The notes under the pieces: model-generated | The model's database searches: none | What the model was told of the DNA's origin: nothing | What the model saw: the letters and a program-made list of their open reading frames with translations, nothing else | Shown: piece by piece, positions 379-23,816 of the stretch | Numbering within the stretch: position 1 is the first letter of the stretch | Layout of the letters: each line of letters opens with the position of its first letter | Position numbers and translations under genes: made by a program | DNA from: an uncultured Nitrospiraceae bacterium | Lineage (GTDB): Bacteria; Nitrospirota; Nitrospiria; Nitrospirales; Nitrospiraceae | Assembly (NCBI GenBank): GCA_963706325.1 | Contig: CAVPLT010000004.1 | Span: 96,001 to 160,000 of the forward strand | Direction of reading: 5' to 3' | DNA: 64,000 nt

Positions 379-475
379 GGACAATGACGTCCTCATCTCA
401 TCGCAGACATCAATAACGCAGAGGACAATGACGTCCTTTTGGTCCGAAGGCTGGACCGGAAGGGCGTTTTTTTTT
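379..475 (+). promoter_or_regulatory. ANTAR-type dual-hairpin antitermination leader with intrinsic terminator
   Basis: P1 is GGAC-AATGAC-GTCC (379-392) and P2 is AGGAC-AATGAC-GTCCT (422-437). The P2 3' arm is part of terminator stem 431-445/453-467, followed by a T run to 475. Confidence 0.8.
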
Positions 476-536
476 GGCGCGTTGGCTCCTCCGGTCTGGT
501 TCATTCCAATCATATGTAACCAGGAGGGCGATCAGG

Positions 537-1928
537 ATGAGGGCACGAATGTCAGGAGGACTCATATGGGGGGCGGTCATGATGATGATCGTCGCCGCCA
601 CGGTTTCGGTGAGAGCAGAAGAGCAGAGTGCGGGAGAGCAGAGTGCGGGAGAGGCGGCTGGAGCTGGACGTCTCAGCCGGGAAGTGGAAACGCCCCCGGC
701 AGTGATTTGCGGAGGCTGTGTGAATCCCAGCTTTTGGACGCGAACTCAGGGCAAGGGCAGTATCGTCCCCTATGGCCGTATCGAATTGGATGCGATTTAT
801 AGCAATAGAAATACCAACCCACTCGATCCCGGTCAGTTCAACGGCTACGCGACCGCCGCCGGAAAAAGCAGTAATGCCTCCTCCACCCTCAACCCTCGTT
901 ATAGCGTGTTCGGCCTCCGAGCCGACCGGACTGACGGGAAACACACACTCACCGGTGTCGTAGAAGCGGATTTTTACAGCCAAACGGACAATGCCGGCAA
1001 TATTTCGCCCCGCCTGCGATTGGCCAACGTCAAGTACTCACCGAACAATAGTCGGACGACCATTACGGCAGGTATGGATTGGACGCCGATCATGTCGTCC
1101 CATCCGAATCTAATCGATTTTTCAATCATGGGCTATAACGGCAATCTGTGGCAGCGTCTTCCGCAGATCACCGTGAAGCAGCAATTCACCGAAAGCGTCA
1201 ACGGCCTCCTGACGGTCATGCGATTCGAACGCGGACTGTCGGCCATTCAACCCCAGACACAACGGCGGCCTTTTCAAGGCGCGGGCGCGGGGGCGGCGGC
1301 TCCCGGCAGTTGCGGGACCAGCGGCTTTGCCTGTTCCGAAAACGCCTTCAACGATCCGGTCCAGATGCCCTACGTGGGGACGCGATTCGCTTACATGGGG
1401 ACTGGTGATCAGGCGGGCTTCATGATGGCGCTGAGTGCGGCCGTTCGGCATTACCGCTCTGCGCCCACGCCTGGAGGTATTCCTGCCGGAAACGATATCA
1501 ATTCATACCTCGTAGGCGCGGAACTCGCGGTCCCCTTGACCAGCCGATTGAAGTTTACCGGTGAGGTGGGCTATGGCCAGGCGCTGGGAGTGGAATTTTT
1601 CCGCTTTGGACAGGAGCGGAACCTCGGCACCGGAAAGGCAATCCGTACCGTTGTCGGGTGGGGAGAGTTAGATTATGCCTACGATCGGCAGCTCACCCTA
1701 ATTGCAGGATATGGGTTCGACAACCCGCTGAATTCCGATCTGCGTGGCACCACCGCCGGGCCAGATACGCAGTATGTGCTCAATCATCGGACCTATCTGA
1801 CCGCCGTCCGCCACATCTGGGGAGATTTGTACGCGTCTTTCGAGTGGAATCACCTCATGACTGAATGGTCCACCAGCGAACATTTTGCCGGCGATAATTT
1901 CATGCTCTCAACTTGGTATAACTTCTAG
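537..1928 (+). CDS. Outer-membrane beta-barrel porin (DcaP-like), candidate urea/amide porin
   Basis: Signal peptide, porin-like motifs (YGRIELDAIY, VEADFY, PRLRLA, GxDWT) and C-terminal aromatic 'TWYNF'. First gene ahead of urtA; GGAGG upstream. Confidence 0.75.
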   Translation: MRARMSGGLIWGAVMMMIVAATVSVRAEEQSAGEQSAGEAAGAGRLSREVETPPAVICGGCVNPSFWTRTQGKGSIVPYGRIELDAIYSNRNTNPLDPGQFNGYATAAGKSSNASSTLNPRYSVFGLRADRTDGKHTLTGVVEADFYSQTDNAGNISPRLRLANVKYSPNNSRTTITAGMDWTPIMSSHPNLIDFSIMGYNGNLWQRLPQITVKQQFTESVNGLLTVMRFERGLSAIQPQTQRRPFQGAGAGAAAPGSCGTSGFACSENAFNDPVQMPYVGTRFAYMGTGDQAGFMMALSAAVRHYRSAPTPGGIPAGNDINSYLVGAELAVPLTSRLKFTGEVGYGQALGVEFFRFGQERNLGTGKAIRTVVGWGELDYAYDRQLTLIAGYGFDNPLNSDLRGTTAGPDTQYVLNHRTYLTAVRHIWGDLYASFEWNHLMTEWSTSEHFAGDNFMLSTWYNF

Positions 1929-1955
1929 CCGAGCGATGATGGCGAAAGGAGTCTC

Positions 1956-3323
1956 ATGATGAGTTCTCAAAAACCACAGGATGGAAATGACGCGATATCC
2001 GGTTCAAAGCCCGAGGTGCCTTCCTCGCGGCGCGAGTTTCTGCTCCACAGTTCGAGGACCGCGGTTGGCATTGGAGTCGCGGCATTACTGGGAAATCTCG
2101 GCCACTGGGCCCTTTCCTACGGGGCCGACAAGGAACCGATCAAGATCGGCGTGCTGCACTCGCTCAGCGGCACGATGGCGATCAGCGAAGTGTCATTGAA
2201 GGATGTCGTCTCGATGGCAGTTGAAGAGATCAATGCCAAGGGCGGACTGCTGGGGCGCCAGCTGAAACTGGTCATTGTCGACCCGGCTTCCAATTGGGAC
2301 CTGTTTGCGGAAAAGGCCAAGCAGTTGTTGGTGCAAGATAAGGTCGCCGTGGTCTTCGGCTGCTGGACATCCGTCAGCCGGAAATCCGTCTTGCCGGTGT
2401 TTGAAAAGAACAACGGCTTGCTCTTTTATCCCGTACAGTACGAGGGAGAAGAGTGCTCCCGAAACGTATTCTACACCGGGGCGGCGGTGAATCAGCAGGC
2501 CGTGCCGGCCGTTGAATATCTGATGAGCAAAGAAGGCGGCGGGTTTAAAAAGTTCTATCTCTTGGGGACGGACTACGTCTATCCAAGGACCACGAACAAG
2601 ATTCTTCGCGCGATGTTGCTGGCCAAGAAAGTGTCCGCAGCCAATATCATGGAGGAATATACTCCATTCCACCATCAAGACTATCAAACCATCGTCGGCA
2701 AGATTAAAAAGTTTTCGGCCGGTGGTGGCGCCTGTGTCATTAGTACGATCAACGGCGACAGCAATGTGCCGTTTTACAAAGAATTCGCCAATCAGGGGTT
2801 GCGCGCTGAAGATGCGCCGATCATGGCCTTCAGCGTCGCCGAGGACGAACTACGTGGGATGGACAAGACAGCCTTGGTCGGCCATTTGGCGGCATGGAAT
2901 TATTACCAGAGCGTCGACGCGCCTCAGAATAAGCAGTTTGTGGCAAGCTTTAAGGCCTATTGCAAAAAGAATAACTTGCCGGACGGAGACAAGCGGGTGA
3001 CCGACGATCCCATCGAGGCGGCCTATTTTGGGGTGCATGTCTGGAAGCAGGCGGTCGAGAAAGCGGGCAGCACCGATGTCGACGCGGTTCGCACGGCGGT
3101 GTATGGACAGAAATTCCTCGCGCCGGGTGGCGAGATCATGATGGATGAGGCCAACCACCATACAAACAAGCCGGTATTGATCGGGGAAATCCTCAAGGAT
3201 GGTCAATTCAAAGTTGTGTGGCGGTCAAGAGGTTTGGTCAAACCAGAACCCTGGAGCGAATACACCAACCCCGAAAAGGGATGCGATTGGGTCAAGCATC
3301 AAGGAACCTATAAAAAAGCCTGA
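1956..3323 (+). CDS. urtA: Urea ABC transporter substrate-binding protein
   Basis: Tat-like signal SRREFL; IKIGVLHSLSGTMAISE, VFGCWTSVSRKSVLPV and FYPVQYEG motifs. Confidence 0.95.
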   Translation: MMSSQKPQDGNDAISGSKPEVPSSRREFLLHSSRTAVGIGVAALLGNLGHWALSYGADKEPIKIGVLHSLSGTMAISEVSLKDVVSMAVEEINAKGGLLGRQLKLVIVDPASNWDLFAEKAKQLLVQDKVAVVFGCWTSVSRKSVLPVFEKNNGLLFYPVQYEGEECSRNVFYTGAAVNQQAVPAVEYLMSKEGGGFKKFYLLGTDYVYPRTTNKILRAMLLAKKVSAANIMEEYTPFHHQDYQTIVGKIKKFSAGGGACVISTINGDSNVPFYKEFANQGLRAEDAPIMAFSVAEDELRGMDKTALVGHLAAWNYYQSVDAPQNKQFVASFKAYCKKNNLPDGDKRVTDDPIEAAYFGVHVWKQAVEKAGSTDVDAVRTAVYGQKFLAPGGEIMMDEANHHTNKPVLIGEILKDGQFKVVWRSRGLVKPEPWSEYTNPEKGCDWVKHQGTYKKA

Positions 3324-3349
3324 CGGAGACCGTCACTCAGGCGTCGGCA

Positions 3350-4913
3350 ATGAATGAAGGTACGCTGCGAATGAATCTCGTCGTTGGGATGGTGTTGGTC
3401 TGGTGCTGTGTGGCATGGGGCGTGAGTGATGGGTTGGCGGCGGAGGCGCTCACGGGTGGCTCCCCGCCGATTCAGCTTGAGCAGGCGTTAAAAGACCTGT
3501 CCAGTGAGGAGGAGGCGACGCGAGAGCAAGCGATTCGTGCACTGATCGCACAGGGGGACGCGACCTGGCTGCCACGCCTGGATGAGTTGCGGGCCAACGC
3601 GGATCGAAGTCTGCGCATGGCGATCAAGCCTGTGGCGGATGCCTGGAGACACCGCGCCAATCTGAGCAGTCCGGATGTCGATACGCGGCGGTCGGCAGCG
3701 GCTGATTTGGGGGCCAGCGGAAGGACAGTGGCCCTTCCTTGGCTGGAAGCTGCGGCGGCGGCCGAATCCCATCGTTGGGTTCGGTATGCGATGGATGAGT
3801 CGGCCCAGATGTTGCGGCTCGCTTCCGAGGACCCGGCGGCGAAGACTCAGGCTGCAACGAAATTGGGAGAGATGCGCAGCCAGAATGCCGTACCGGCATT
3901 GAAGGAACTGGTCCAAGCGGCCGCTGAGGCAGATGGAAGCGAGCAGCAGAAGATTGTCGCGCGTGCGGCTGCTGCCGCCATCGATCAAATCGAAACATGG
4001 AACGTGTGGTCGACGGCAATCGAAACGGTGTTTCGCGGCATCAGCTTAAGTTCCATCCTCCTCATCATGTCCGTAGGGCTCGCGATCGTCTTCGGGTTGA
4101 TGGGCGTCATCAACATGGCGCACGGCGAGCTGATGATGATCGGCGCCTATGCCACCTTTGTGATGCAGGAATGTTTTAAACTCTATTTTCCTCCAACCTG
4201 GTTTGATGCCTATTACCTCGCGGCCCTCCCGGCTTCGTTTCTGTGCCGCGGCACTATTCGGATTGTTGCTAGAAGCGACGGTCATTCGATTCCTGTACGG
4301 CCGCCCGCTCGAAACGATGTTGGCAACCTGGGGAGTCAGCCTGATTTTGATCCAGGGAGCGCGCATCTATTTCGGTGATTTGACGGCTGTCTCCGCTCCG
4401 GCCTGGCTCAACGGCGGGACGCAGGTCATGGTCGGGGTGTTCCTGCCCTTCAATCGCCTGTTCATCATCGGCCTCTCCATTCTCTGTGTCACGGGTATTT
4501 ATGTGTTGCTGTTCCGGTCGAGCGTAGGATTGCGAGTGCGGGCGGTCACGCAGAACCGGAACATGAGCGCCTGTCTGGGCATTCCCACCAGGAAGGTAGA
4601 TGCCTACACGTTTGCGTTCGGTTCGGGGTTGGCTGGTATAGCGGGCTGGGCCCTGACCTTAGTGGGCAATGTCGAGCCGGGACTGGGGCAGAACTACATC
4701 GTGGACTCCTTTATGGTGGTGGTGACCGGCGGAGTCGGAAAACTTGCCGGAACCATTATTGCCTCGCTCGGCATCGGCGGATTGAACAAACTGATGGAGC
4801 CCAGTCTCGGAGCGGTCTACGCCAAGGTGTTGATTCTTGTGCTGGTGATTCTCTTCCTGCAGCGACGACCCTCGGGGCTGTTTGCGGTTAAGGGGCGTCA
4901 CGCCGAGGGGTAA
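3350..4913 (+). CDS. urtB: Urea ABC transporter permease with N-terminal HEAT-like periplasmic domain; frameshifted near 4243
   Basis: ORF 3350..4378 holds GLAIVFGLMGVINMAHGE. ORF 4203..4913 continues with RFLYGRPLETMLATWG...QRRPSGLF. The frame changes at tttctgtgccgcggca. Confidence 0.9.
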
Positions 4914-4929
4914 GGATAGAGCAGGAGGA

Positions 4930-6078
4930 ATGGCAGAACCATTGGCACCACAGTCGAATGCGGAGCGGAACGAAGGCACCCTCTTTTGGGTCGTCGGTTT
5001 CGTGCTTCTATTTGTGCTTCCCATCCTCAATGTGTTGCCGGAGGAGGATTCCTGGCTGCACCTTTCCGATTTTGCTCTGAACCGATTCGGAAAGTTCCTC
5101 GCCTTTGCCATTCTAGCGCTCGGCCTCGATTTGATCTGGGGATATGCGGGTATTCTCAGTTTGGGACAGGGCGTCTTCTTTGGGTTGGGCGCCTACTGTA
5201 TGGGGATGCACCTCATGCTCACCATCGGGAATGAGAGTGTTTACGGCAGCGCCCTGCCGGATTTCATGGTCTGGAATCAGGTCACTGAATTGCCGTTTTT
5301 CTGGAAGCCGTTTTATAGCTTCACCGCTGCCGTTGTGGCGGGTGTACTGGTGCCGGCCGGCTTCGCGCTCCTGTTCGGGTTTCTTGCCTTCCGCAGCCGA
5401 ATCCGCGGCGTCTATTTCGCCATCATCACGCAGGCTCTGGCGCTCATGGCTTGGCTCGTCTTCAATCGGAACGAAACGAATCTGGGCGGGACCAACGGCC
5501 TGACTGACTTCAAGACCATCCTCGGATTTCGGTTGTCCGAGCCTGGGACGCAACTGGCCCTCTATGTCGTCACGGTATTGTGTCTCGGGGGAGCCTATCT
5601 ATTCTGCCGCTGGATCATCGCCTCGCGGGCCGGTCGAGTCCTGATTGCCATTCGTGACAGCGAACAGCGAGTCCTCTTTTCCGGCTACTCGCCGGCCAAC
5701 TACAAACTGTTCGTCTTCGTGGTGTCGGCGGCGCTGGCCGGCCTCGCAGGCATTCTCTATGTTCCTCAAGTCGGCATCATCACCCCGGCGCAAATGGGGG
5801 TGCTTCCCTCGCTTGAAATGGTGATCTGGGTGGCGGTGGGAGGCCGCGCGACGCTTGTGGGAGCCATCGTCGGAGCAGTGGGCGTCAACCTTGGCCGCAG
5901 TATCCTCACGAACCATTTTCCGGAACTGTGGCCATTCTTTCTAGGCGGGCTCTTTGTCGTCGTCGTGCTGCTGTTTCCCGACGGCGTCATGGGGATCGCC
6001 AAGAGGGCAAGTGAGAAGATGACGGTGCGAGCCGACCGTATACGAAAGGCTCCGGCCGTGGAAGAGGAGCAGGCATGA
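4930..6078 (+). CDS. urtC: Urea ABC transporter permease
   Basis: LGLDLIWGYAGILSLGQGVFFGLGAY, LPDFMVWN and RGVYFAIITQAL motifs; GGAGG precedes ATG 4930. Confidence 0.93.
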   Translation: MAEPLAPQSNAERNEGTLFWVVGFVLLFVLPILNVLPEEDSWLHLSDFALNRFGKFLAFAILALGLDLIWGYAGILSLGQGVFFGLGAYCMGMHLMLTIGNESVYGSALPDFMVWNQVTELPFFWKPFYSFTAAVVAGVLVPAGFALLFGFLAFRSRIRGVYFAIITQALALMAWLVFNRNETNLGGTNGLTDFKTILGFRLSEPGTQLALYVVTVLCLGGAYLFCRWIIASRAGRVLIAIRDSEQRVLFSGYSPANYKLFVFVVSAALAGLAGILYVPQVGIITPAQMGVLPSLEMVIWVAVGGRATLVGAIVGAVGVNLGRSILTNHFPELWPFFLGGLFVVVVLLFPDGVMGIAKRASEKMTVRADRIRKAPAVEEEQA

Positions 6079-6842
6079 CGGAACACGGCTCCATCATCTA
6101 CTTGGAAGGCGTCACCGTCGATTATGATGGTTTCAAAGCCTTGAACAATTTGAATTTCATCGTGAACCATCGCGAACTCCGAGTGGTGATCGGGCCGAAC
6201 GGCGCAGGGAAGACGACATTGTTGGACGTCATCTCAGGTAAGACCAAGCCGGCAGCTGGGCGTGTCATCTTCGGCAAGGATACCGATCTCATCGGCATGC
6301 GAGAGTACGAGATTACGCAACTCGGCATCGGCCGAAAATTTCAGGCTCCGTCCATCTATGGCAATCTTACCGTCTGGGAAAATCTTGACCTGTCGTTGAG
6401 CCGTCCCAGCAAGGGCGTTTTGTTCACGTTGAGAGGCCAGTCCACAGCGGCAGAACGGCAACAGATCGACGAGGCCTTGGACACTATTGGATTGACCGCA
6501 CAGGCGCGTCTGCGAGCGGGATCGCTGTCTCACGGCCAGAAGCAATGGCTAGAAATCGGCATGGTGATTCTGCAGGATCCGGAGTTATTGCTAGTGGATG
6601 AACCGGTGGCGGGCATGACAGACGAAGAGACCGCGCAAACGGGACGGTTGCTTCAGTCGCTGGCGGAAAAACACGCAATTATCGTCATTGAGCACGACAT
6701 GGAGTTTGTGCGGCAGATCGCGCGTATCGTGACGGTGCTGCACGAGGGAACCGTCATTTGCGAAGGACCGGTAGAAAAGGTCCAGGCTGATGACAGAGTG
6801 AGAGAGATTTATCTGGGACGCCAAAAGGTGGCACATGCTTAA
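6075..6842 (+). CDS. urtD: Urea ABC transporter ATP-binding protein
   Basis: Walker A GPNGAGKT, LSHGQKQWLEIGM, DEPVAGMT. Confidence 0.95.
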   Translation: MTEHGSIIYLEGVTVDYDGFKALNNLNFIVNHRELRVVIGPNGAGKTTLLDVISGKTKPAAGRVIFGKDTDLIGMREYEITQLGIGRKFQAPSIYGNLTVWENLDLSLSRPSKGVLFTLRGQSTAAERQQIDEALDTIGLTAQARLRAGSLSHGQKQWLEIGMVILQDPELLLVDEPVAGMTDEETAQTGRLLQSLAEKHAIIVIEHDMEFVRQIARIVTVLHEGTVICEGPVEKVQADDRVREIYLGRQKVAHA

Positions 6843-6973
6843 CAGGATGGTGAAAAGCGCTCCCAGCGTAGTTCTCGGCTCGGCAAGGTCCTCAACGTAC
6901 CCGGAGGGCACGCCTCCGGTCTTCTCTCGCCGGCGGCGTTGTGGAACACTTTTGACCTCCTTTGAACATCCTG
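6843..6973. repeat. Intergenic structured repeat family A, copy 1 (MITE/REP-like)
   Basis: Ends CAGGATG...CATCCTG. Core CCTCAACGTACCC-GGA-GGGCACGCCTCCGG is shared with 9190-9312 and 11049-11165. Confidence 0.8.
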
Positions 6974-6995
6974 GAGGAGTAATCGAAGCAATACT

Positions 6996-7705
6996 ATGTT
7001 GCGACTAGAGAAGGTCAACGTCTATTACGGCGAAAGCCACATTCTTCGGAACGTCTCGTTTCACATCGAAGCCGGCCAGGTGGCGTGCGTGATGGGTCGT
7101 AATGGTGTCGGCAAGTCGACGACGCTCAAGGCCATCATGGGTCTTTTGCCGGTGCGCAGCGGCCAAGTCACTTTCGATGGAACGGATATTACGAAGGTGT
7201 CGACTGACCGACGGGCCAAGGCGGGCTTGCTTATGTTCCGCAGGGGCGAGAGATTATTCCGCATTTGACGGTGCATGAAAACCTCCAACTGGGGTATTGG
7301 GCACGCGGGAGCACCGGGAATGGAAATTCAGAAAAGGCCGCTTTCGACGAGGTCTATTCGCTTTTCCCCAAGCTCACCCAGATTCGAGAGCGGCCGGGTG
7401 GTGTGTTGAGCGGTGGGGAACAGCAGCAACTGGCCATCGGACGCGCAATTCTGTCGAATCCCAAAGTCTTGCTGCTCGATGAACCGACCGAAGGCATTCA
7501 ACCGTCCATCGTGGATCAGATCGAGGATGTGATCATTGGCTTCAAAACGGCGCGCCGGTTCGCGATTGTCTTAGTCGAGCAGGGCCTGCATTTTGCCGCC
7601 AGGCTGGCCGACTGTTATGTCGTGATGGCCAAAGGAGCGGTGATGGCGGCGGGGAAAAAGGATGAGCTGAGCGCCGAGATGGTAAAGCAGCACTTGACGG
7701 TATAG
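6996..7705 (+). CDS. urtE: Urea ABC transporter ATP-binding protein; frameshifted near 7230
   Basis: GRNGVGKST in 6996..7268; LSGGEQQQLAIGRA and DEPTEGIQPSI in 7265..7705. Adding one G at ggcttg^cttatgtt restores GLAYVPQGREIIPHLTV. Confidence 0.9.
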
Positions 7706-7964
7706 GCGGAAAGGTCTCACGAGACACCGCTGACTCGTTGGCGTCAGCCGCCCTATGCTTGTCATTCCTCGCCCCGCCACCTCGCAGCCGAGCACAAGAA
7801 GACCGTGCTGATTCCATAACCGCCAAGGAAAGCCCCAAGTGTGATACGACACCAGGCCGTAGCCTCTTGCTAAGCTGTCGAAAGGAGACGGTTGATCTGC
7901 TCGACCTCGGTCGCTACTATGTGTCCAGCATGTCGTGCTGTTTCCTTTTCCCGCCTGCGGAGGA

Positions 7965-8393
7965 GTGGTCCTGAAGGCATTTCCCAAGATACCAGTTGTG
8001 GTCTGCTTCCTCAGTTTGGCAGCTTGTGCAACAGGAAATTACACGCCGCTCGGGGAGGCTGATAAAGATCAGGTCGAGCAGCTGAAGGACAATGTCTACC
8101 GTGTCGAGTATCGCGTCAGCTCGTTCACGTCGCAGAAACAGTTGGATGCCTATTTGCGTCGCCGCTGCGCCGAATTGACGTTGCGGGAAGGCTACGATTA
8201 TTTTCACCTTGCGCAGCGCGCCGATGTCCTGGCACTCTCGCGCCGCACTTCGATGACGGTGACGATGTATAGGGGACAGATGCCCGCTGGCGCGGGTGAT
8301 CTCTATGATGCGAAGCATGTCTTAGCTGAGTCGGCGGCGGTCATTAAGAATGATTATCGAATGACGTGTGACGAGGTCCGGATATGCATCTGA
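7965..8393 (+). CDS. Small lipoprotein (CC0125/CC1285-like); start uncertain
   Basis: Lipobox LAAC and motif [18 protein letters not shown]; overlaps the ureA start. Confidence 0.6.
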
Positions 8394-8686
8394 CACCGCG
8401 TGAGCAAGAAAAGCTACTGATTTACGTGGCGGCCAAGCTGGCCAAAGACCGCAAGGGGCGAGGGCTGAAGCTCAACCACCCTGAAGCGGTCGCATTTATT
8501 ACGGCGGAGATTCTGGAGGGAATTCGCGACGGTAAGTCGGTGTCGGAACTGATGAGTCATGGCGCCACGTTACTCACACGACAAGATGTCATGTCAGGCG
8601 TACCGGAGATGATTCCTGAACTTCAGGTCGAGGGCACGTTCCCGGATGGCACGAAACTGGTGACTGTGCATGAGCCGATACGATAG
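8384..8686 (+). CDS. ureA: Urease gamma subunit
   Basis: [12 protein letters not shown]...[19 protein letters not shown]. Confidence 0.98.
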
Positions 8687-8694
8687 GTAATGGA

Positions 8695-9159: not shown

Positions 9160-9189
9160 ACGGGCAGTGAGTGTGTCACGAAAGGAGAA

Positions 9190-9312: not shown

Positions 9313-9318
9313 ATTAGC

Positions 9319-11046: not shown

Positions 11047-11048
11047 CA

Positions 11049-14558: not shown

Positions 14559-14574
14559 CCAGGCACCATTTTCC

Positions 14575-14821: not shown

Positions 14822-16591
14822 ATGCGATCGATACGGATTGCGATGGCACAAATGAACACGACGGTCGGTGACCTGTCAGGCAATGTTCGCCGCATTACGG
14901 GCTGGATACGAGAGGCTCGTCGGGCACGCGCAGATTTGGTAGCTTTTCCGGAGTTGGCGATCACTGGGTATCCGCCGGAAGATTTGCTGTTCAATCCTCG
15001 CTTTCTTGATGAGACGTATCGTGCATTGAAGATGGTGGCGGCGGAGGCGCGCGGACTGGTTGTGGTGGTGGGGTATGTCGGTCGGGGAACGAAGACGGGG
15101 CCGTTTCCCGATCCGTCCTCTTTATCTTCCGTCGGTCGCCATGATTTGTACAACGCAGCGGCTCTGTTGTTCGGTCGTCGCGTGCTGGCCAGCTACTGTA
15201 AGCGACATTTGCCGAACTACGGGGTGTTCGATGAGAGCCGCTATTTTCAGCCCGGGCGTCGCCTCCCGCTCCTGGTGCTGAATGGCACCAGGATTGCGGT
15301 CAACATCTGCGAAGACATTTGGTTTCCTGAGGGACCCACAAGGATGCAGGCCGCAGCGGGAGCAGAAGTCATCGTCAACATCAACGCATCTCCATTTCAT
15401 ATAGGCAAATGCCGGATGCGTGAGCAAGTGTTAGCAACGAGGGCGCGGGATAACCGGGTCATTGTGACGTACACCAATACGGTCGGGGGGCAGGATGAGC
15501 TGGTCTTCGACGGCAGCAGCTTGATTGTCGATCAGACTGGCGAGATCATCGTGCGCGGGAAGGCGTTTGAAGAAGATCTGATCATTGCCGATCTTGATGT
15601 TGCGGCGGTGGGTCGGGCACGGCTGGCGAGGGGGCGTAAGAAGTCGATACCTCCTCGGGTGGCAGTTCTCGTAGACCGAATTGCCGTTCGGTTACCCGCC
15701 AGAAAATCACGGTCGCTGGCTGTTCCGGCGCTGAGCCCGCAACTGGAGCCGTTGGAGGAGGCCTATCGGGCGCTCGTCCTTGGGGTGCAAGATTACGTCC
15801 GGAAGAACGGCTTTAAGCGTGTCGTCATCGGTTTGAGCGGCGGAGTAGACTCGGCCATCACGGCAGTCATTGCGGTGGATGCCCTCGGCGCGGAGAACGT
15901 GCTCGGGGTCTTCATGCCCTCGCCCTACACCTCAAAGGTCAGCCGCGAGGATGTCGTCGATCTAGGCCGTCGGCTCCAGATTCAGGTGGACACGCTGTCT
16001 ATCACGTCGACGTTCAAGAGTTATCTGCGTACGCTCACCCCCTCCTTCAAAGGCTCGCGCCCCGATACGACCGAAGAAAATCTTCAAGCCCGTATCAGGG
16101 GCAACCTGTTAATGGCCTATTCGAATAAGTTCGGCCATCTCGTACTGACGACCGGCAACAAGAGTGAGATGAGCGTGGGGTATGCAACGCTCTACGGCGA
16201 TATGGCGGGCGGGTTTGCCGTCATCAAAGATGTGCCGAAAACCATGGTCTATGAACTCGCGCATCTGAGGAATGCGTTGGGGCCGTCTCCGGTGATCCCG
16301 AATCGTATTCTGGAACGCCCTCCCACGGCGGAACTGCGCCCCGATCAAAAGGACGAGGACAGTTTGCCGCCGTATCCGCTGTTGGATCCTATTCTGAAGG
16401 CTTATGTGGAGGAAGACCGGACGCTGGAAGACATTGTGGCCATGGGGTTCGATAGAGCGACGGTGGCTCGGGTCATGACCATGGTCGACCGAAGCGAGTA
16501 TAAGCGGCGCCAAGCGCCGCTGGGGATCAAGATCACCTATCGGGCATTCGGCAAGGATCGGCGCATGCCGATCACAAACGGGTATCGATAG
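14822..16591 (+). CDS. nadE: Glutamine-dependent NAD+ synthetase
   Basis: N-terminal nitrilase-like domain (FPELAITGYPPEDL, LPNYGVFDE, ICEDIW); synthetase domain GLSGGVDS, ENLQARIRG, TGNKSE, PTAEL. Confidence 0.96.
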   Translation: MRSIRIAMAQMNTTVGDLSGNVRRITGWIREARRARADLVAFPELAITGYPPEDLLFNPRFLDETYRALKMVAAEARGLVVVVGYVGRGTKTGPFPDPSSLSSVGRHDLYNAAALLFGRRVLASYCKRHLPNYGVFDESRYFQPGRRLPLLVLNGTRIAVNICEDIWFPEGPTRMQAAAGAEVIVNINASPFHIGKCRMREQVLATRARDNRVIVTYTNTVGGQDELVFDGSSLIVDQTGEIIVRGKAFEEDLIIADLDVAAVGRARLARGRKKSIPPRVAVLVDRIAVRLPARKSRSLAVPALSPQLEPLEEAYRALVLGVQDYVRKNGFKRVVIGLSGGVDSAITAVIAVDALGAENVLGVFMPSPYTSKVSREDVVDLGRRLQIQVDTLSITSTFKSYLRTLTPSFKGSRPDTTEENLQARIRGNLLMAYSNKFGHLVLTTGNKSEMSVGYATLYGDMAGGFAVIKDVPKTMVYELAHLRNALGPSPVIPNRILERPPTAELRPDQKDEDSLPPYPLLDPILKAYVEEDRTLEDIVAMGFDRATVARVMTMVDRSEYKRRQAPLGIKITYRAFGKDRRMPITNGYR

Positions 16592-16606: not shown

Positions 16607-16719
16607 TGACCGACAATGACGCCGGTCAGCGGGGCTGGCAATGGCGCCAGAGAATAAGACACGCGGCCTTAGACGGAGGCCGTCGACACAATGTTGTTAT
16701 TTCTTTGGGAGGTGCCATG
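16607..16719 (+). promoter_or_regulatory. ANTAR-type dual hairpin with an alternative helix over the RBS/start codon (putative translational switch)
   Basis: TGACCGAC-AATGAC-GCCGGTCA (16607-16628) and CTGGC-AATGGC-GCCAG (16635-16650), with a 6-nt linker. ATGGCGCC (16641-48) is complementary to GGTGCCAT (16711-18). Confidence 0.65.
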
Positions 16720-17547
16720 CAGGTGCTCGGAGGACAGTATGTGCGAGGGTGGATGCGTAGATGCATGATGGCACCAATGTTGTTGGTCGGCTCGAATGCT
16801 CAGGCGCAGGACGTAGAGGTCGTCGCACCCAAGGCAATAACAGCTAGATGGACAAGGACCAAGCACTCGGTGTCGGTGACGATGCAAGCGGACAGTTTTT
16901 CCGGCTCCAACCCATCGATTTATGGAACGTACGGACTAACCGACAATGTCGCGCTCGCCTTCAACTTCTCCAATCGGACCATGATCAGCAGAGTCGGCAT
17001 ACATGACAATGCGCCATGACTGGAAAGGGATGTGGGCTTGAATTTGACCTTCCTAGAGAAACGGCTGTCCATCACACCCATGATCGGGTTCGCACATGGT
17101 CAGCTCTTGTCGGCACGGGTGCATACTTTCCAAACGGCGGAGGCAGTGTGAACAGACGCACCACCGCGTTTGAACGCGCCATGCCGAATGTAACCATGAA
17201 TTACCTCGACAATCGGTTCGAAGGGGAGTTCTATCTGGGGTACTACAAGGTGATTCGGAGCGAAGGCGGAAGCGACAGCGGGGGAGTAATCAAATTGTGG
17301 CAATCCCGGCGATATGAATCGCCTGGGGTCGGCTCAGGCGGGTGGCAGGGGTACCTGAGACTTCTTGCACTTCTGGGTGAGCGCCGGAGTACGCGTGAAC
17401 AGCATGTGGTCGATGGGGGCGCATCACGAACATCTGCTGACGACCCGTGACAGCAGCGCACCGGGAGCTGCACAGGACTACTATCGCTGGATCGGGCCCT
17501 ATGTCGAAATGAACTTCCGGGCAACATGGCCTTCCGGTTTACGGTAA
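16717..17547 (+). pseudogene. Fragmented exported/outer-membrane protein gene
   Basis: GGAGG plus ATG 16717 and a signal-peptide-like end (SNAQA-QD). Amphipathic aromatic beta-strand-like fragments are spread over several frames (YGTYGLTDNVAL, FEGEFYLGYY, YYRWIGPYVEMNF). Confidence 0.5.
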
Positions 17548-17686
17548 GCAAAGACCTGACCGATAATCAGGATTTCTACAAATTGAATTTACCAAGGCCT
17601 TTTGATTCCGGCCAGCCGCGTGAGGCTCAGGACGAGAAGGGGTGTCCTTCTGGTCCCGAGTTTCCCGATGCGAAGGAGGCTCGATC

Positions 17687-19012
17687 GTGACCATATTGAA
17701 GCGTTCCGGCATCCTACTCTGTTCAGGGTTGGGACTGCTCATGGCGTTGCTGATTGGAATTTCTGACGCCGGGGCCCAGAGTGCGCCATTAAAAGCCGAT
17801 AGCGGGGATACGGCCTGGGTGCTCGTGTCGTCAGCATTCGTGCTGGCGATGCTGATGCCCGGGCTCGCGCTGTTTTACGGAGGATTGGTGCGCACCAAAA
17901 ACGTGCTCGCGACTATCATGCAGAGCATCATGATCTTGAGCGTGGTCAGCGTGCTGTGGGTCCTGTTCGGGTACAGCCTGGCCTTCGGACCGGATAAAGG
18001 CGGTGTGATTGGCGGCTTGGACTGGGTCGGGCTCAGCGGGGTGGGCGCCGAACCGCATCCAATCTACGGACCGACGATTCCTCACCAGGCCTTCGTGTTG
18101 TTTCAGATGATGTTTGCGGCGATCGCTCCGGCGTTGATCACGGGCGCCTTCGCCGAACGGAAGCGTTTTACGTCGGTCGTGTTGTTTGCGGGGATCTGGT
18201 CGCTCGTGGTCTATGTGCCGCTGGTACATTGGATCTGGGGTGGGGGATGGTTGGCCAAATTGGGCGCCTTGGATTTTGCCGGCGGCGCGGTCATCCACAT
18301 CAACTCCGGCGCATCGGCCCTGGTCTGCGCGATTATGTTGGGCAAGCGGCGAGGGTATGGGACTGATTATATGGCGCCCCACAATCTTCCGATGACGTTG
18401 CTCGGGACAGGCTTTTTGTGGTTCGGGTGGTTTGGTTTCAACGGCGGCAGCGCGCTGGGCGCGAATGGCATTGCCGTGTCGGCCATCCTCGCGACCCATA
18501 CGGCGGCGGCTATGGGTGCCATGGCCTGGTGTGGGGTCGAGTGGGCACATCGCGGCAAGCCTACCGTATTGGGGGTCGCAAGCGGAGCCGTCGCCGGGCT
18601 CGCGACCGTGACGCCCGCGGCAGGCTATATCAGTCCGCTTTTCGCGCTGGCGATCGGTACCGTGGCCGGTATGGCCTGCTATGGAGCGATTGTCTGGAAG
18701 GGGCGATTCGGCTATGATGACTCGCTTGACGTCGTGGGGATTCATGGAGTCGGGGGAGTGATCGGGATTCTCGCTACCGGACTCTGTGCCAGCAAGCTTA
18801 TCAATCCGGCCGGCGCCGATGGCCTGCTCTATGGCAATCCTGGTCTCTTGGGCATCCAGCTGCTCGTTGTGGTAGTCACGGCGATTTTCTCGATGGTCGG
18901 CACATTTGTCATCCTCAAATTGGTCGATTCCATGACAGGGTTGCGCGTGTCTCCTGAAGAGGAAGCGAACGGGCTGGATTTGAGTCAACATAACGAGCGG
19001 GCTTATTCGTGA
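17687..19012 (+). CDS. amtB: Ammonium transporter (Amt family)
   Basis: DSGDTAW, LMPGLALFYGG, FQMMFA, DFAGG, LWFGWFGFNGGS, DDSLDVVGIHGVGG, GLDLSQHNERAY. Confidence 0.96.
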   Translation: MTILKRSGILLCSGLGLLMALLIGISDAGAQSAPLKADSGDTAWVLVSSAFVLAMLMPGLALFYGGLVRTKNVLATIMQSIMILSVVSVLWVLFGYSLAFGPDKGGVIGGLDWVGLSGVGAEPHPIYGPTIPHQAFVLFQMMFAAIAPALITGAFAERKRFTSVVLFAGIWSLVVYVPLVHWIWGGGWLAKLGALDFAGGAVIHINSGASALVCAIMLGKRRGYGTDYMAPHNLPMTLLGTGFLWFGWFGFNGGSALGANGIAVSAILATHTAAAMGAMAWCGVEWAHRGKPTVLGVASGAVAGLATVTPAAGYISPLFALAIGTVAGMACYGAIVWKGRFGYDDSLDVVGIHGVGGVIGILATGLCASKLINPAGADGLLYGNPGLLGIQLLVVVVTAIFSMVGTFVILKLVDSMTGLRVSPEEEANGLDLSQHNERAYS

Positions 19013-19048
19013 ATGACGCCGTCGACTGAGAGCGGTCGCCGGTCCTAG

Positions 19049-19396
<348 letters not shown>

Positions 19397-19398
19397 GT

Positions 19399-22101
19399 AT
19401 GGCACAGCCACTGGATACGGGTTCGCAAATATTGCAGGAGTCAGCCCCCGCAGCGGGGGCGCATCGGCTGGCGGATCAGCGCGAGGCGATTCACCAACGG
19501 CTGCTGACCGGTGCGTCGGGTGACGAGGTAGTGGCGATGACCACGGATGTGGTCGACGGCTTGATCGTAGGACAGTACCGCACCGCGGCGCGAACTGGTG
19601 GAGAGGCATTCACGACCGCCGGATTTCAGCATTGCTGTCTGGTCGCGCTGGGCGGCTATGGCCGGCGGGAGATGGCGCCACACTCTGATATCGACCTGAT
19701 GTTTCTGTTTCACCCCGATGCGGCGAAGGTCATCCCAGAGCTGGTGAAACAGGTGCTCCATCCCTTGTGGGACAGTGGATTTCAGGTGGGCCATAGCGTG
19801 CGTACGATCCAAGACTGCGTGGATTTGGGGCTCGCTGATTTGACGGTTCGCACCTCGATGATGGAAGCGCGGTTTCTCGCCGGGAGCGCCGAACTCTTTC
19901 AGCAATTCCATGCGCGCTATGTCAGAAAGGTGGTGTCGAGACGGGCCGATGCCTACGTGGAGCAGAAGGTTGCCGAGCGACATCGCGAGTACCAGAAGTT
20001 CGGCGAGACCGTGTATTTGCTGGAACCGAACGTCAAGAAAAGCCAAGGCGGGTTGCGCGACCTGCACCTCCTACAGTGGGTCGGGTTGGCGCGGTATCAG
20101 GCGCCCACAATTCGTGAATTGTCCGACCGCGGGATTTTGTCCCAAGCCGACTACCAGGCCATCAAGGAGGCGCGGGAGTTTCTCTTGCGCGTTCGTTCGT
20201 TTCTCCATATTCGGGCCGGCATGGCGCAGGAAATTCTGACCTTCGATGAACAGGTCTGGTTGGCCACACAGCTCGGTTTTACCGATCGCCCGCATCTTCT
20301 CGCCGTCGAGCAGTTCATGCAGCAGTATTATCTTCATACCATGGGGCTTCATGCCGCTTCGATGCGATTCGTGGAACGTTGCCGTCGCCGCTCATTGTGG
20401 CAGCGGCTCGTCCGATGGTTGCCGTCACCGCGGCTCGATCAGTACTTCGTGGTTGATGGCCAAGCCTTGACGGTGCCCGTCGAGTTACGTTCCCAGGTGC
20501 TGGATCGGCCGGCCACGCTTCTGAGGCTCTTTGACCTGGCACGCTCAAAAAAAATGAGCATCGATCCGTCGCTGCTGGAAGACATTCACCGGCATGCGGA
20601 GATGTTGTCGGTCGAGGGGTTCCGTACGCCGGAGACGGCGCGTACCTTCCTGTCGATCTTGGCCGGGCCTGGAACAGCGCGAACATTGGAAGCCATGCAT
20701 CGCGCGCATCTGTTGGAAAAGCTGGTGCCGGCCTTCGCGCGCGTGCGCGGACTGATGCAATTCAATCAGTACCACAAGTACACGGTTGATGAGCATAGTC
20801 TCCTGGCGGTGGCCAAGGCGGAAGCCTTAGCTGACCATCAGGGTGTGTTGGGTGAAGTGTATCGGGAGATCAAGCGGAAGGACTTGCTGCATTTGGCCGT
20901 GTTGCTCCACGACCTGGGCAAGGGGCATGAGGAAGACCATAGCGAAGTCGGAAAACGATTGGCTGAAGATACGGCGGCCCTGTTGGGATTCGATGAGCGG
21001 GACACCCGAACGCTCGTCATGCTCGTCCACCGTCACTTACTGATGGCCCATACGGCGTTTCGCCGGGATCCTTACGATGAAAAAGTATTACTGCCGTTTG
21101 CCCGTGAAGTCGGCACGCCCGAGGTGCTCCGCAAGTTGCTGGCTCTGACGGCGGCTGATATTGCCGCGGTCGGTCCGGACGTGCTGACGAAATGGAAAGA
21201 GTCGCTGTTGATCGAATTGTATCTGCGGGCCATGCAGGAAGTATCCGGCGAGCGTGAGACGGTCGATGAACCGCAACGATTGGCGCTTGTCGTCGCTGAC
21301 GTGGCATCGCAGCAGGCTTCGGATCCGGATATTCCAACTGACAGAGTATGGATCCAATCTGAGTTGGAACAGTTTCCACTACGCTATGTGTATGGGACAC
21401 CTGCCCGGCGCATTGCCGCGCATCTCGCCGCGATACATGGACTGCAGGTCGGCGGAGTGATGGTCGATACCGATTTCAATCCCCAGCTAGGGACCTGTGA
21501 ATATGTGGTGGTCGCGCATAACGATCTGATTCCCGGTTTGTTTTCTAAAATTGCCGGAGTCATGGCGGCGGGGGGGTTGCAGATTCTGGATGCCCAGATT
21601 GTGACGCGAAAAGACGGCATCGTCGTCGATACGTTTCAAGTCGCCGACCCCGACTATCAAGGCGCTCCTCCTGCGGAACGACGCGAGTCGATCGGCCAGA
21701 GAATCACGGAGGTGTTGACCTGCCGCCAGACCATCGAAGCGATGATGCGTCGCGGGGCCAGGCTCAGCATGGGACGGTCATTTCCGGCGCATCGGCAACC
21801 CGCTGAGGTGCGGATCGACAATGAAACGTCCGACCGGTTCACCATCCTCGACGTGTTTGCTGACGATCGGCAAGGGTTGCTCTACGTCATCACCAATGCA
21901 ATTTTTCAGTTGGGATTGTCCGTCCATGCGTCACGAATTTCCACCCGCCTCGATCAGGTGGCGGACGTGTTTTATGTGACGAGTATGGAGGGCAAGAAGG
22001 TGGAGGAGGCTGGTCGGCTGGAATCGATCCGGACGGCGATCCTCAGCGCGATCGAGACGTTTCTCGGTGCCAATGCGGCGCAAGACGCAGGGCGTGGGTA
22101 G
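19399..22101 (+). CDS. glnD: PII uridylyltransferase/uridylyl-removing enzyme
   Basis: ALGGYGRREMAPHSDIDL, EPNVKKSQGGLRD, HD domain (YHKYTVDEH, LLHDLGKG) and two C-terminal ACT domains. Confidence 0.95.
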   Translation: MAQPLDTGSQILQESAPAAGAHRLADQREAIHQRLLTGASGDEVVAMTTDVVDGLIVGQYRTAARTGGEAFTTAGFQHCCLVALGGYGRREMAPHSDIDLMFLFHPDAAKVIPELVKQVLHPLWDSGFQVGHSVRTIQDCVDLGLADLTVRTSMMEARFLAGSAELFQQFHARYVRKVVSRRADAYVEQKVAERHREYQKFGETVYLLEPNVKKSQGGLRDLHLLQWVGLARYQAPTIRELSDRGILSQADYQAIKEAREFLLRVRSFLHIRAGMAQEILTFDEQVWLATQLGFTDRPHLLAVEQFMQQYYLHTMGLHAASMRFVERCRRRSLWQRLVRWLPSPRLDQYFVVDGQALTVPVELRSQVLDRPATLLRLFDLARSKKMSIDPSLLEDIHRHAEMLSVEGFRTPETARTFLSILAGPGTARTLEAMHRAHLLEKLVPAFARVRGLMQFNQYHKYTVDEHSLLAVAKAEALADHQGVLGEVYREIKRKDLLHLAVLLHDLGKGHEEDHSEVGKRLAEDTAALLGFDERDTRTLVMLVHRHLLMAHTAFRRDPYDEKVLLPFAREVGTPEVLRKLLALTAADIAAVGPDVLTKWKESLLIELYLRAMQEVSGERETVDEPQRLALVVADVASQQASDPDIPTDRVWIQSELEQFPLRYVYGTPARRIAAHLAAIHGLQVGGVMVDTDFNPQLGTCEYVVVAHNDLIPGLFSKIAGVMAAGGLQILDAQIVTRKDGIVVDTFQVADPDYQGAPPAERRESIGQRITEVLTCRQTIEAMMRRGARLSMGRSFPAHRQPAEVRIDNETSDRFTILDVFADDRQGLLYVITNAIFQLGLSVHASRISTRLDQVADVFYVTSMEGKKVEEAGRLESIRTAILSAIETFLGANAAQDAGRG

Positions 22102-22133
22102 TCATTTTCATCGGCGGTTGAAAGGAGGAGGGG

Positions 22134-23543
22134 ATGAACGTTCGTGAGGTCTTAGATTTTGCTAAGAAAAACAAGGTCCAGGTCGTGGACATGAAATTCG
22201 TGGACCTGATCGGAACCTGGCAGCATTTCACCATTCCGATCAGCGAACTGACGGAAGGCCTGTTCAAGGACGGCTCGGGGCTGGATGGCTCGTCGATTCG
22301 AGGCTGGAGAGCGATCAATAACAGCGACATGTTGCTCGTGCCTGATCCGTCAACCGCCTGTCTGGACCCCTTCTGCTCCGTACCGACCCTGAGCCTGGTC
22401 GGCAATGTGGTCGACCCGATCACGCGTGAAACCTATGATCGGGATCCGCGATATATCGCGCAGAAGGCGGAGAAATATCTGCAAAGCACCAAGATCGGCG
22501 ACATTTCCTATTGGGGCCCGGAAGCCGAATTTTTTATCTTCGATCATGCGCGTTATGACCAAACGAATCACAGTGGGTATTACTTCATCGATTCCGATGA
22601 GGGCGTGTGGAATATGGGGCAGGAAGGCGTGAACCTGGGCGGCAAGATCCGCCACAAGGAGGGATACTTCCCTGTGCCGCCGACTGACACGCAGCAGGAC
22701 ATCCGCACCGAAATGGTGCTGGAAATGGAAAAGGCCGGCATCGCCACCGAGAAACATCACCATGAAGTGGCCACGGCGGGTCAGGCGGAAATCGACATTC
22801 GGTTCGATAGCCTGGTGAGAACCGCGGACAAAATGATGATGTTCAAATACATCGTCAAGAACGTCGCGCGGCGGCATGGCAAGACTGCCACCTTCATGCC
22901 GAAACCCATTTTCGGAGACAATGGGTCGGGCATGCATACGCACCAGAGCATCTGGAAAGAGGGCAAGCCCCTGTTCGCCGGGAAAGAGTATGCGGGCGTG
23001 TCGCAGATGTGTTTGCACTACATCGGGGGCATCCTGAAGCATGCGCCGGCGCTGGCCGCCTTCACCAATCCCTCGACCAATTCCTACAAGCGACTGACGC
23101 CGGGCTTTGAAGCGCCGGTGCTGCTGGCCTATTCAAGCCGCAACCGGTCTGCCGGCATTCGCATTCCCATGTATTCACCCAGCCCTAAGGCGAAGCGGAT
23201 TGAAGTGCGTTTCCCTGATCCGGCTGCAAACCCCTACCTTGCCTTTGCCGCCATGCTCATGGCCGGCTTGGACGGGATCGAAAACAAAATCAATCCTGGC
23301 GAGCCGGCGGAGAAAGATCTGTACGATCTCGAAGCCAAGGAAGCCGCCAAGATTCGAACCATGCCGGGGAGTTTGGATGAGGCGCTCAATCACCTCGAGA
23401 AGAATCACCAATTCCTGCTGAAGGGCGGCGTATTTAGCGAAGACCTGATCGAGTCTTGGATCGCCTACAAGCGTAGTAAGGAAGTGGATACGATGCGGTT
23501 GCGGCCGCATCCGTATGAATTCTTCCTGTATTACGACGTGTAG
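22134..23543 (+). CDS. glnA: Glutamine synthetase type I (adenylylatable)
   Basis: [51 protein letters not shown] adenylylation site. Confidence 0.98.
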
Positions 23544-23570
23544 CCTGCCGACCCCGGCATCAACAATCCC

Positions 23571-23600
23571 TTGACGATGCTACAGGGGCGATGGTATACA
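23571..23600 (+). promoter_or_regulatory. Putative promoter TTGACG-N18-TATACA upstream of the FNT-cynS-nirA operon
   Basis: TTGACG 23571-23576 and TATACA 23595-23600. Confidence 0.65.
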
Positions 23601-23619
23601 TGGTCCTGCGGGTGAGAGA

Positions 23620-23712
23620 AGGCAACGAGGCCTAATTTACACCGGTACTACAATATGTACACGGACAAAGGCGTCCGTCATTCTTACAAGAGTGGCGGAC
23701 GTCTTATTTTTT
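23620..23712 (+). promoter_or_regulatory. ANTAR-type dual-hairpin antitermination leader, first unit
   Basis: P1 is AGGC-AACGAG-GCCT (23620-33) and P2 is ACGGAC-AAAGGC-GTCCGT (23661-78). Terminator stem 23671-84/23689-702 is followed by CTTATTTTTT. Confidence 0.8.
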
Positions 23713-23714
23713 AG

Positions 23715-23816
23715 CCGACGGCGAAGTCGGTAAAGTTAATCTTGGTGAGGCATGACAGCCTCGCCCCAGGACAACGACGTCCTCTTCCCAGCCGCGGGAT
23801 GAGGGCGTTTTTTTTT
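23715..23816 (+). promoter_or_regulatory. ANTAR-type dual-hairpin antitermination leader, second tandem unit
   Basis: P1 is CCGAC-GGCGAA-GTCGG (23715-30; loop position 1 is G) and P2 is AGGAC-AACGAC-GTCCT (23768-83). Terminator 23777-89/23796-808 is followed by T9. Confidence 0.75.

Follow-up and report, generated by a model that had tools for sequence, protein, structure and literature searches.

How does a Nitrospira-like bacterium control the genes with which it acquires urea, ammonium, cyanate and nitrite? The question is raised by a stretch of 64,000 nucleotides from an uncultured Nitrospiraceae bacterium (GenBank assembly GCA_963706325.1, contig CAVPLT010000004.1, positions 96,001 to 160,000), called the window hereafter, in which pairs of hairpins with 6-nt loops lie in the leaders of nitrogen operons. 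A preliminary description of the window had proposed that one ANTAR-type antiterminator, encoded outside it, binds these hairpins and coordinates the whole cluster. Judged from sequence, ANTAR-dependent antitermination by a 419-aa protein is very probably the mechanism at work.

Hexaloop hairpins overlap intrinsic terminators

Sequence inspection located all five hairpin pairs of the preliminary description, at the positions and with the loops it gave. P1 and P2 designate the first and second hexaloop hairpin of each pair; the "fifth element" is the third in window order. Elements 1 to 4 were delimited by folding and covariance model, the fifth as indicated:

379..476, plus strand: element 1, leader of the porin-urtABCDE-ureABCFGD operon; P1 379-392 (loop 383-388, AATGAC), P2 420-439 (loop 427-432, AATGAC), overlapping terminator 432-476
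14574..14678, plus strand: element 2, leader of nadE; P1 14574-14593 (loop 14581-14586, AACGGA), P2 14626-14641 (loop 14631-14636, AACGAC), terminator 14636-14678
16608..16719, plus strand: fifth element; P1 16608-16627 (loop 16615-16620, AATGAC), P2 16635-16650 (loop 16640-16645, AATGGC), no terminator, alternative helix of 16641-16648 with 16711-16718; folding, 28.6 bits with covariance model R2, of whose training set it is a member
23620..23712, plus strand: element 3, first of two tandem attenuators in the nirC-cynS-nirA leader; P1 23620-23633 (loop 23624-23629, AACGAG), P2 23661-23678 (loop 23667-23672, AAAGGC), terminator 23670-23712
23714..23816, plus strand: element 4, second tandem attenuator; P1 23714-23731 (loop 23720-23725, GGCGAA, with G4 kept and A1 lost), P2 23768-23783 (loop 23773-23778, AACGAC), terminator 23778-23816

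All ten loops are closed by a C-G pair and carry a G at position four (G4), and nine of the ten begin with an A (A1). In elements 1 to 4, four of the five, the last loop base and the 3' arm of P2 form the 5' arm of a further hairpin followed by a U-run. Folding of these four leaders confirmed that the two structures are mutually exclusive: the terminator hairpins reached -23.8, -21.8, -24.1 and -19.0 kcal/mol, and the terminator fold was favored over the forced two-hairpin alternative by 9.3, 10.2, 16.4 and 10.0 kcal/mol. Because the terminator fold outcompetes the forced two-hairpin fold, OFF is the predicted default. Hexaloop hairpins with stems of at least 3 bp were found in four of the five elements, the fifth having a mismatch in P1, and elements 1 to 4 combine the A1/G4 loops with a P2 exclusive with an intrinsic terminator, as dual-hexaloop antiterminators do.

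These structures were compared with chance expectation. The 14-mer GGACAANGRCGTCC has five copies in the 4.2-Mb genome, all five inside these leaders. A strict hand-made descriptor, demanding A1 in both loops, found three sites genome-wide, each of them inside the window; six shuffled genomes gave 0-2 (mean 0.5). A looser one, demanding A1 in at least one loop, gave six sites, four of them in the window, against 1-6 per shuffle, a count not above chance. The argument against chance is thus carried by clustering and conservation, not by the loose descriptor count. Covariance model R1 returned four genome matches at 65-76 bits and a next best of at most 16.1 bits; the four were themselves training sequences, and the informative part is the absence of others. 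No additional strong site was found genome-wide by the covariance models built from these leaders and their relatives, a search that terminator-less sites could escape. The fifth element was itself missed by the genome-wide R2 search and obtained its score with filters off. An Rfam scan at gathering scores returned nothing at the five elements.

Conservation and covariation of the leaders

The hexaloop pattern is kept in orthologous leaders of the urea operon (13/13), of nadE (20/20) and of the first (16/16) and second (15/16, the sixteenth being visible on inspection) nirC attenuators. The fifth element is kept at 19 of 21 loci (18/20 genomes), and both misses have a different gene after nadE.

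Covariation was analyzed over 49 rows, comprising 46 of the 64 collected terminator leaders and three extra elements. In the antiterminator fold, 95.7% of the cells were paired and 6/11 pairs showed two-sided changes (score 0.440 versus 0.140 shuffled); in the terminator fold, 94.6% were paired and 8/12 pairs changed on both sides (0.601 versus 0.231 shuffled). Slid-alignment controls lowered the pairing to 32-52%. The earlier statement that stems vary while keeping their pairing therefore stands for the terminator and for P1, where two-sided changes affect five of the six pairs. It does not stand for P2, whose stem is nearly invariant, with three of five pairs identical in 49/49 rows and a core uninformative for covariation, and the P1 of the fifth element contains an A.C mismatch. 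Among the collected elements, A1 of P1 is present in 104 of 123, G4 and A1 of P2 having been selection criteria there.

The elements also track nitrogen genes upon rearrangement, preceding an extra amt (G004) or a BBP2 porin-amt pair (G217, G266 and G442), as well as a second cynS (G442 and G431) and, in distant families, nadE and glnA. Many open reading frames (ORFs) downstream of matches had no Pfam match, and a few weak matches (integrase, unannotated) look like chance. Beyond the family, R1 matched 31 of 50 ANTAR-positive genomes, with 14/14 in the sister family and 8/22 in other classes. Three matches in other families (L128, L131 and L136) precede stand-alone sigma54-interaction activators with no recognised N-terminal sensor, possibly a second regulatory tier. 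Several glnA or nadE leaders of other families and classes (L133-L135, L137, L138 and L141) show a clear P2 and terminator and no obvious P1, which may represent a single-hairpin variant. In the sister family f2 (L118-L122, L127 and L129), the attenuator lies a short distance 3' of the ANTAR gene, and no more than a few bases separate its U-run from the start codon of nadE; the 3' arm of this terminator thus holds the likely ribosome-binding site, possibly allowing joint control of transcription and translation.

As a separate observation, several genomes carry, after nadE, paralogues of a 320-aa lipoprotein-like ORF without Pfam match (L001:1706-2668, minus strand); these ORFs repeatedly lie next to ANTAR-type leaders and are encoded on the other strand.

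A GAF-GAF-ANTAR protein encoded beside the cluster

The expected ANTAR protein was found just beyond the window edge. The sole PF03861 match of the genome is a 419-aa protein (G000:C4:94008-95267, plus strand), whose gene ends 733 bp 5' of window base 1 and whose ANTAR domain scores 68-71.5 bits for a Pfam cut-off of 27.3. It is preceded by a gene that we provisionally take, from its sequence, to be aroB-like. A Pfam search of the protein identified GAF and ANTAR domains only and found no receiver domain, which places it outside the receiver-type ANTAR subfamily. In the predicted structure (pLDDT 84, pTM 0.53), two GAF folds are followed by a long helix and a C-terminal bundle of three helices; the coiled-coil-ANTAR part covers about residues 325-419.

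Alignment with EutV extended over 62 residues with ranges of equal length, so that the mapping is gap-free. Of 12 EutV RNA-contact residues taken from PMC8934654, seven are identical in the regulator, R142, K143, K149, E160, M172 and R175 among them, and two are conservatively replaced (K147R and Y164F).

Named homologues of the regulator come from Nitrospira and Nitrospiraceae (81-85% identity). A search of representative proteins yielded mostly multi-GAF giants, and same-length homologues, at 42-51% identity, were few among the matches listed. ANTAR matches occurred in 39/39 genomes of the genus, 162/221 of the family, 42/43 of the sister family and 153/401 of a phylum sample; two of the 221, G429 and G448, are unpublished and enter no other claim made here. 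Cluster genes lie downstream of the regulator gene in 19 of 20 genus genomes, and the contig of the twentieth stops after 1.6 kb.

Co-occurrence and loss of protein and RNA elements

The relation between protein and RNA was followed in relatives carrying amoA. No match to ammonia monooxygenase was found in the genome under study (control families also silent, 96% completeness), a blank that is meaningful because the same family was matched in 78 of 221 relatives; amoA was likewise not found in 30 other genomes of its genus.

In genus g2 (70 genomes), none of the 47 amoA-positive genomes had an ANTAR match, compared with 16 of the 23 amoA-negative ones. All 16 ANTAR-positive genomes contained 3-9 RNA matches, and 44 of the 47 amoA-positive genomes contained none. 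The remaining three were G258, with two weak matches, G507, with one weak match unlike the element, and G318, with one intact element followed by no ATG-started ORF of at least 80 aa within 1.5 kb. At six of seven ANTAR-negative g2 loci examined, the aroB-like gene runs directly into nadE, and regulator, promoter and attenuator are gone; at the G318 locus, residues 1-58 of the regulator still have a match. G258 has decayed tandem attenuators after glnA and fragments of glnD and nirA, together with a glnA frameshift, so some of these breaks may be assembly errors. The glnD gene occurs in 19 of the 70 genomes, namely all 16 ANTAR-positive ones and three amoA-positive ones. The absences in g2 probably reflect one or few losses rather than 47.

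In genus g5, all 30 amoA-positive genomes encode ANTAR, and 22 of the 23 searched have RNA matches. From the two AmoA score groups and the published split between Rh and Amt transporters (PMC6311188), we infer that the amoA-positive g2 genomes are comammox (complete ammonia-oxidizing) clade A and g5 clade B. The regulatory difference between the two comammox groups parallels this known Rh versus Amt split between them. The clade-specific gene clusters tabulated in PMC9714041 might record the absence of the ANTAR gene. G431, from a separate genus with a g2-like amoA score (310 contigs), has the regulator.

Control of amoCAB by the regulon in amoA-positive genomes was considered and rejected for G477, the genome with the one match seen near amoA. 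This element (L088:9268-9365) is on the opposite strand, some 2 kb beyond the downstream side of amoB; a carbonic anhydrase-like ORF follows it, and its leader resembles the porin-amt leader. Separately, in two amoA-positive g5 genomes (L105:15575-17806 and L089:12769-14835), a PAS/HisKA_3 kinase module has been inserted between the first element and the urea operon.

Could the leaders be protein-independent attenuators or riboswitches, or constitutive leaky terminators, with the ANTAR gene as a bystander? Three genomes with strong elements and no detected ANTAR speak in favor of such an explanation. However, no Rfam family is found at the element sites, the loop-to-loop distance between P1 and P2 ranges from 21 to 56 nt with a linker sequence that is not shared, unlike an aptamer, and genomes that have deleted the ANTAR gene show the elements gone or degraded. 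We regard this explanation as highly improbable and retain ANTAR-dependent antitermination.

Several observations weigh against the latter. G391 and G470 (110 and 260 contigs) combine strong RNA matches with no ANTAR match, G318 has its intact orphan element without ANTAR, and G362 has ANTAR without an RNA match. Outside the family, 19 of 50 ANTAR-positive genomes lack an R1 match, and several matches consist of P2 and terminator only. The covariation rows pool four paralogous leaders and their kin, which overstates their independence; the shuffle figures are not probabilities, and P2 barely varies. Three EutV contact residues are altered in the regulator (R168Q, N173D and R177S). Finally, 25 NtrC-like activators below cut-off are candidates for an extra layer of control.

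The fifth element may act on translation

The fifth element fits an ANTAR-binding RNA, not an antiterminator. Its loops have A1 and G4 in both hairpins in 18/18 sequences, and no U-tailed terminator overlapping P2 was found in the orthologues folded. Instead, an alternative helix is possible between positions 16641-16648, in the loop and 3' arm of P2, and positions 16711-16718, a segment that runs from the last bases of GGAGG through the spacer to the AU of the start codon (16717). This masking helix keeps 8/8 pairs in 17 of 18 genomes and 7/8 in one, and the consensus fold selected it unprompted.

The balance tips slightly toward a translational ON switch, in which ANTAR binding would free the ribosome-binding site. 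The principal alternative is only somewhat less probable: the element could act on RNA stability, be a Rho-linked signal, or be a relic with incidental start-codon pairing. This alternative draws on three findings that count against a switch: with the hairpins forced, mean unpairing around the ribosome-binding site and AUG was 0.44 over the 18 genomes, a small rise from 0.34, and five of them showed no rise; changes in the 8-bp masking helix are one-sided wobbles only, with no two-sided covariation; and no such element was seen ahead of the DUF6733 gene of G203, the one orthologue from another genus looked at. The alternative sits less well with the Shine-Dalgarno-to-AUG spacer, which is normally free to vary and here stays complementary, with the unprompted choice of the masking helix by the consensus fold, and with the constancy of A1 and G4 in both loops.

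The gene behind this candidate switch looks like a true pseudogene here, with two TGG-to-TGA stops and several indels relative to two orthologues. The A.C mismatch (16613/16622) beside the P1 closing pair occurs in this genome only, the position being paired in the other 17 of 18 aligned sequences; it fits relaxed selection with a pseudogene target, but is one base. The DUF6733 gene is intact in relatives, lies before amt, where other genomes carry a BBP2 porin, and has barrel-like structural look-alikes; its product is a candidate outer-membrane barrel or channel linked to ammonium uptake.

Probable operons and putative promoters of the cluster

The genes were assigned mainly by family searches and the promoters by their motif:

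324..353, plus strand: sigma70-like promoter TTGACA-18-TATACA, 30 nt 5' of the first loop; motif in 13/13 orthologous leaders
537..13532, plus strand: porin-like gene (537-1928), urtA-E, lipoprotein, ureABC, ureF, ureG, ureD
14529..14558, plus strand: sigma70-like promoter TTGACA-18-TATACA, 23 nt 5' of the first loop; 20/20 orthologous leaders
14822..16591, plus strand: nadE, glutamine-dependent-type NAD+ synthase with nitrilase-like and synthase domains (NF010588 above cut-off)
16717..17605, plus strand: DUF6733-family pseudogene (orthologue match, 188 bits)
17642..23543, plus strand: amt, glnB (PII), glnD, glnA
23571..23600, plus strand: sigma70-like promoter TTGACG-18-TATACA, 24 nt 5' of the first loop; 15/16 orthologous leaders
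23852..27862, plus strand: nirC-type transporter, cynS (cyanase), nirA, CBS-domain gene

This order corresponds to the syntenic nitrogen region described in canonical Nitrospira (PMC6311188). In the three terminator-bearing leaders, a TTGACR-17/18-TATA motif stands 23-30 nt before the P1 loop, and the elements are thus placed between promoter motif and first gene. A strict-consensus promoter scan reported none of the three motifs (9 sites versus 6.5 expected); their designation as putative sigma70-type promoters is made because the motif is conserved across orthologous leaders. No NtrC above the curated cut-off was found genome-wide (best 459.5 versus 558.6), the 25 activators cited above being weaker.

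The porin identity of 537-1928 is a lead from porin-family structural look-alikes, and nirA (ferredoxin-nitrite reductase) scored 548 bits, below its cut-off of 594. In this assembly, urtB (4244) and urtE (7221) have one 1-nt indel each and are frameshifted relative to intact orthologues; an assembly artefact and an early stage of decay in the urea transporter are both possible causes. No ANTAR element of its own was found for amt-glnB-glnD-glnA. The proposal that one ANTAR protein coordinates the whole cluster is supported within limits: the ANTAR gene is single and adjoins the cluster, but amt-glnB-glnD-glnA are covered only if the nadE promoter drives their transcription too, the mode of action of the fifth element is not that of the other four, and nitrogen status is the presumed signal.

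Other features were observed in the region. A GlnE-like gene at about 31445-31925 (minus strand) is frameshifted relative to intact orthologues, and an AIPR-family protein is encoded at 27957-29726 (minus strand), between the CBS gene and the glnE region. Related intergenic inverted repeats of about 120-150 bp, were recognized by eye at 6840-6990, 9170-9315, 11045-11190 and 14680-14800; relatives have them too, and they resemble a dispersed family of miniature repeats. The sole Rfam match at gathering scores, 5_ureB_sRNA at 9464-9760 (minus strand), is antisense within the urease alpha gene and probably due to coding similarity.

Which signal does the regulator read?

The best structure match of the first GAF domain (GAF1) was 3e0y, a "conserved domain" GAF of unassigned function (E 1.9e-24), followed by two PtsP GAFs (E 2.6e-23 and 3.3e-17; TM 0.85-0.87) at about 30% identity. 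The GAF of PtsP senses glutamine and 2-oxoglutarate (PMC13104625, PMC4848567). In N. moscoviensis the cluster is transcribed on nitrite alone, and the urea and cyanate genes are expressed without urea or cyanate; in N. japonica the assimilatory ONR is expressed on nitrite and not with ammonia (PMC6606698). Nitrogen-status sensing is our best guess because of the PtsP-like GAF1, the general nitrogen-scavenging targets and this published expression pattern. The chances appear about even that GAF1 senses glutamine and/or 2-oxoglutarate directly, glutamine switching the system off; the low identity to PtsP and the unassigned function of the top match speak against it.

The same antitermination could be governed by PII acting on the GAF domains through a GlnB/GlnD relay, rather than by a bound metabolite. 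PII control of this kind exists for some NifA GAF domains. Both glnB and glnD lie within the cluster, glnD tracks ANTAR in g2 as described above, and the GAF of the activator Nlh1, presumably NifA-like, is among the structure matches (E 1e-9). However, three amoA-positive genomes have glnD without ANTAR, glnB is kept at 7/7 ANTAR-negative loci examined, the co-loss of glnD is equally explained by neighborhood and amt loss, and the PtsP-type GAFs score far better than Nlh1. We consider such a relay unlikely.

More doubtful still is a GAF pair sensing a specific substrate or cue (nitrite, cyanate, urea, a cyclic nucleotide or redox) within the same antitermination scheme. Tandem GAFs of cyclic-nucleotide enzymes head the whole-protein fold search, but at 13-20% identity, reflecting the tandem layout. 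Other ANTAR systems do answer to specific substrates (PMC12591593), whereas the targets here, nadE, amt and glnA among them, serve nitrogen scavenging in general, in genomes that differ in urease content, and the N. moscoviensis genes are expressed without urea or cyanate, as noted above.

Proposed mechanism

In the scheme that we favor, transcription would start at the three sigma70-like promoters. By default, the nascent leader would fold into the intrinsic terminator, a fold indicated by folding and covariation, use up the 3' arm of P2 and stop about 100-150 nt in. Under nitrogen shortage, the GAF-GAF-ANTAR protein, presumably as a dimer, would bind the P1 and P2 hexaloops through G4 and A1 and keep P2 folded. 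By analogy with EutV, NasR and GnfR, and given the co-occurrence pattern, the resulting readthrough would extend into the urea, nadE-amt-glnB-glnD-glnA and nirC-cynS-nirA operons. With two attenuators in series, the nitrite/cyanate operon may be the most tightly gated, and at the fifth element the same binding would free the ribosome-binding site instead. Structures, conservation, adjacency and co-occurrence are observations; promoters, termination, binding, signal and operon extent belong to the model.

Relation to known systems and significance

The core mechanism, ANTAR antitermination, is already known, and multi-operon nitrogen regulons of this type have been predicted; the system here differs in its GAF-GAF input, in the candidate ON switch at translation and in the joint loss of protein and RNA. 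Receiver-type ANTAR systems, which combine a receiver or pseudo-receiver domain with a partner kinase or sequestering protein, include, besides EutV and GnfR, NasT and AmiR. The EutV/EutW system of the Enterococcus faecalis eut leaders has the same dual A1/G4 hexaloops, a P2 overlapping the terminator, several elements per locus and similar RNA-contact residues, but EutV is a kinase-activated receiver-ANTAR protein, whereas the Nitrospira protein has two GAFs fused to ANTAR and nitrogen-scavenging targets (PMC3369931, PMC8934654). GnfK/GnfR of Geobacter sulfurreducens also performs antitermination under nitrogen limitation, and its site CAGGCAANGGCGCC matches the Nitrospira loops and stems; GnfR acts beneath RpoN and GnfL/GnfM as a second regulatory tier (PMC2995071), in contrast to Nitrospira with its sigma70-like promoters, no NtrC above cut-off and the sensor on the antiterminator itself.

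The ANTAR regulons predicted in 2012 for Desulfotomaculum and Pelobacter likewise span several operons with PII, ammonium, urea and nitrite transport, nitrite reductase and glutamine synthesis (PMC3369931). Nitrospira and Thermodesulfovibrio are absent from the text of that paper and its seven supplement files searched, and as of that source no GAF- or PAS-ANTAR protein had been characterized. NasR of Klebsiella is also a one-component sensor-ANTAR protein with ligand-released RNA binding, but its NIT domain senses nitrate/nitrite and it acts on the nasF operon, compared with GAF-GAF and three or more operons here (PMC12591593).

Mycobacterial ANTAR-target RNAs (Rv1626) also have hairpins acting at translation initiation; there the ribosome-binding site lies inside the hairpins and binding represses, whereas the hairpin at 16608-16719 competes with the masking helix and binding would activate (bioRxiv 10.1101/660928, which also mentions RNAs with alternative pairing). 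The PtsP / EI-Ntr GAF, the closest functionally named structural relative of GAF1 and a glutamine/2-oxoglutarate sensor, governs a phosphotransferase, whereas GAF1 sits on an RNA-binding protein (PMC13104625, PMC4848567).

The Nitrospira nitrogen-assimilation cluster and one case of ammonium repression have been described (PMC6311188, PMC6606698). In literature covering few subscription journals, we found neither a named regulator of this cluster nor a description of ANTAR or antitermination in Nitrospira, nor a previous account of the loss in comammox genomes, and the word "ANTAR" has no occurrence in PMC6606698 and PMC12342949.

The finding supplies a specific protein, exact RNA sites and mutable bases, all amenable to testing in vitro or in E. 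coli without Nitrospira genetics. It also offers a natural target set for the uncharacterized GAF-GAF-ANTAR class and a candidate instance in which an ANTAR protein would activate translation. In soils, waters and treatment plants, Nitrospira are major nitrite oxidizers and complete nitrifiers, and leader-to-gene read ratios could report their in situ nitrogen status in metatranscriptomes. Taken as a whole, and as a tentative possibility, the nitrogen-starvation response of Nitrospirales may be mainly post-initiation: one GAF-GAF-ANTAR protein would read glutamine/2-oxoglutarate via a PtsP-type GAF, replace NtrB/NtrC and act by antitermination and unmasking of a ribosome-binding site, and one comammox group would have deleted regulator and attenuator, leaving nadE-glnB-glnA behind a housekeeping gene.

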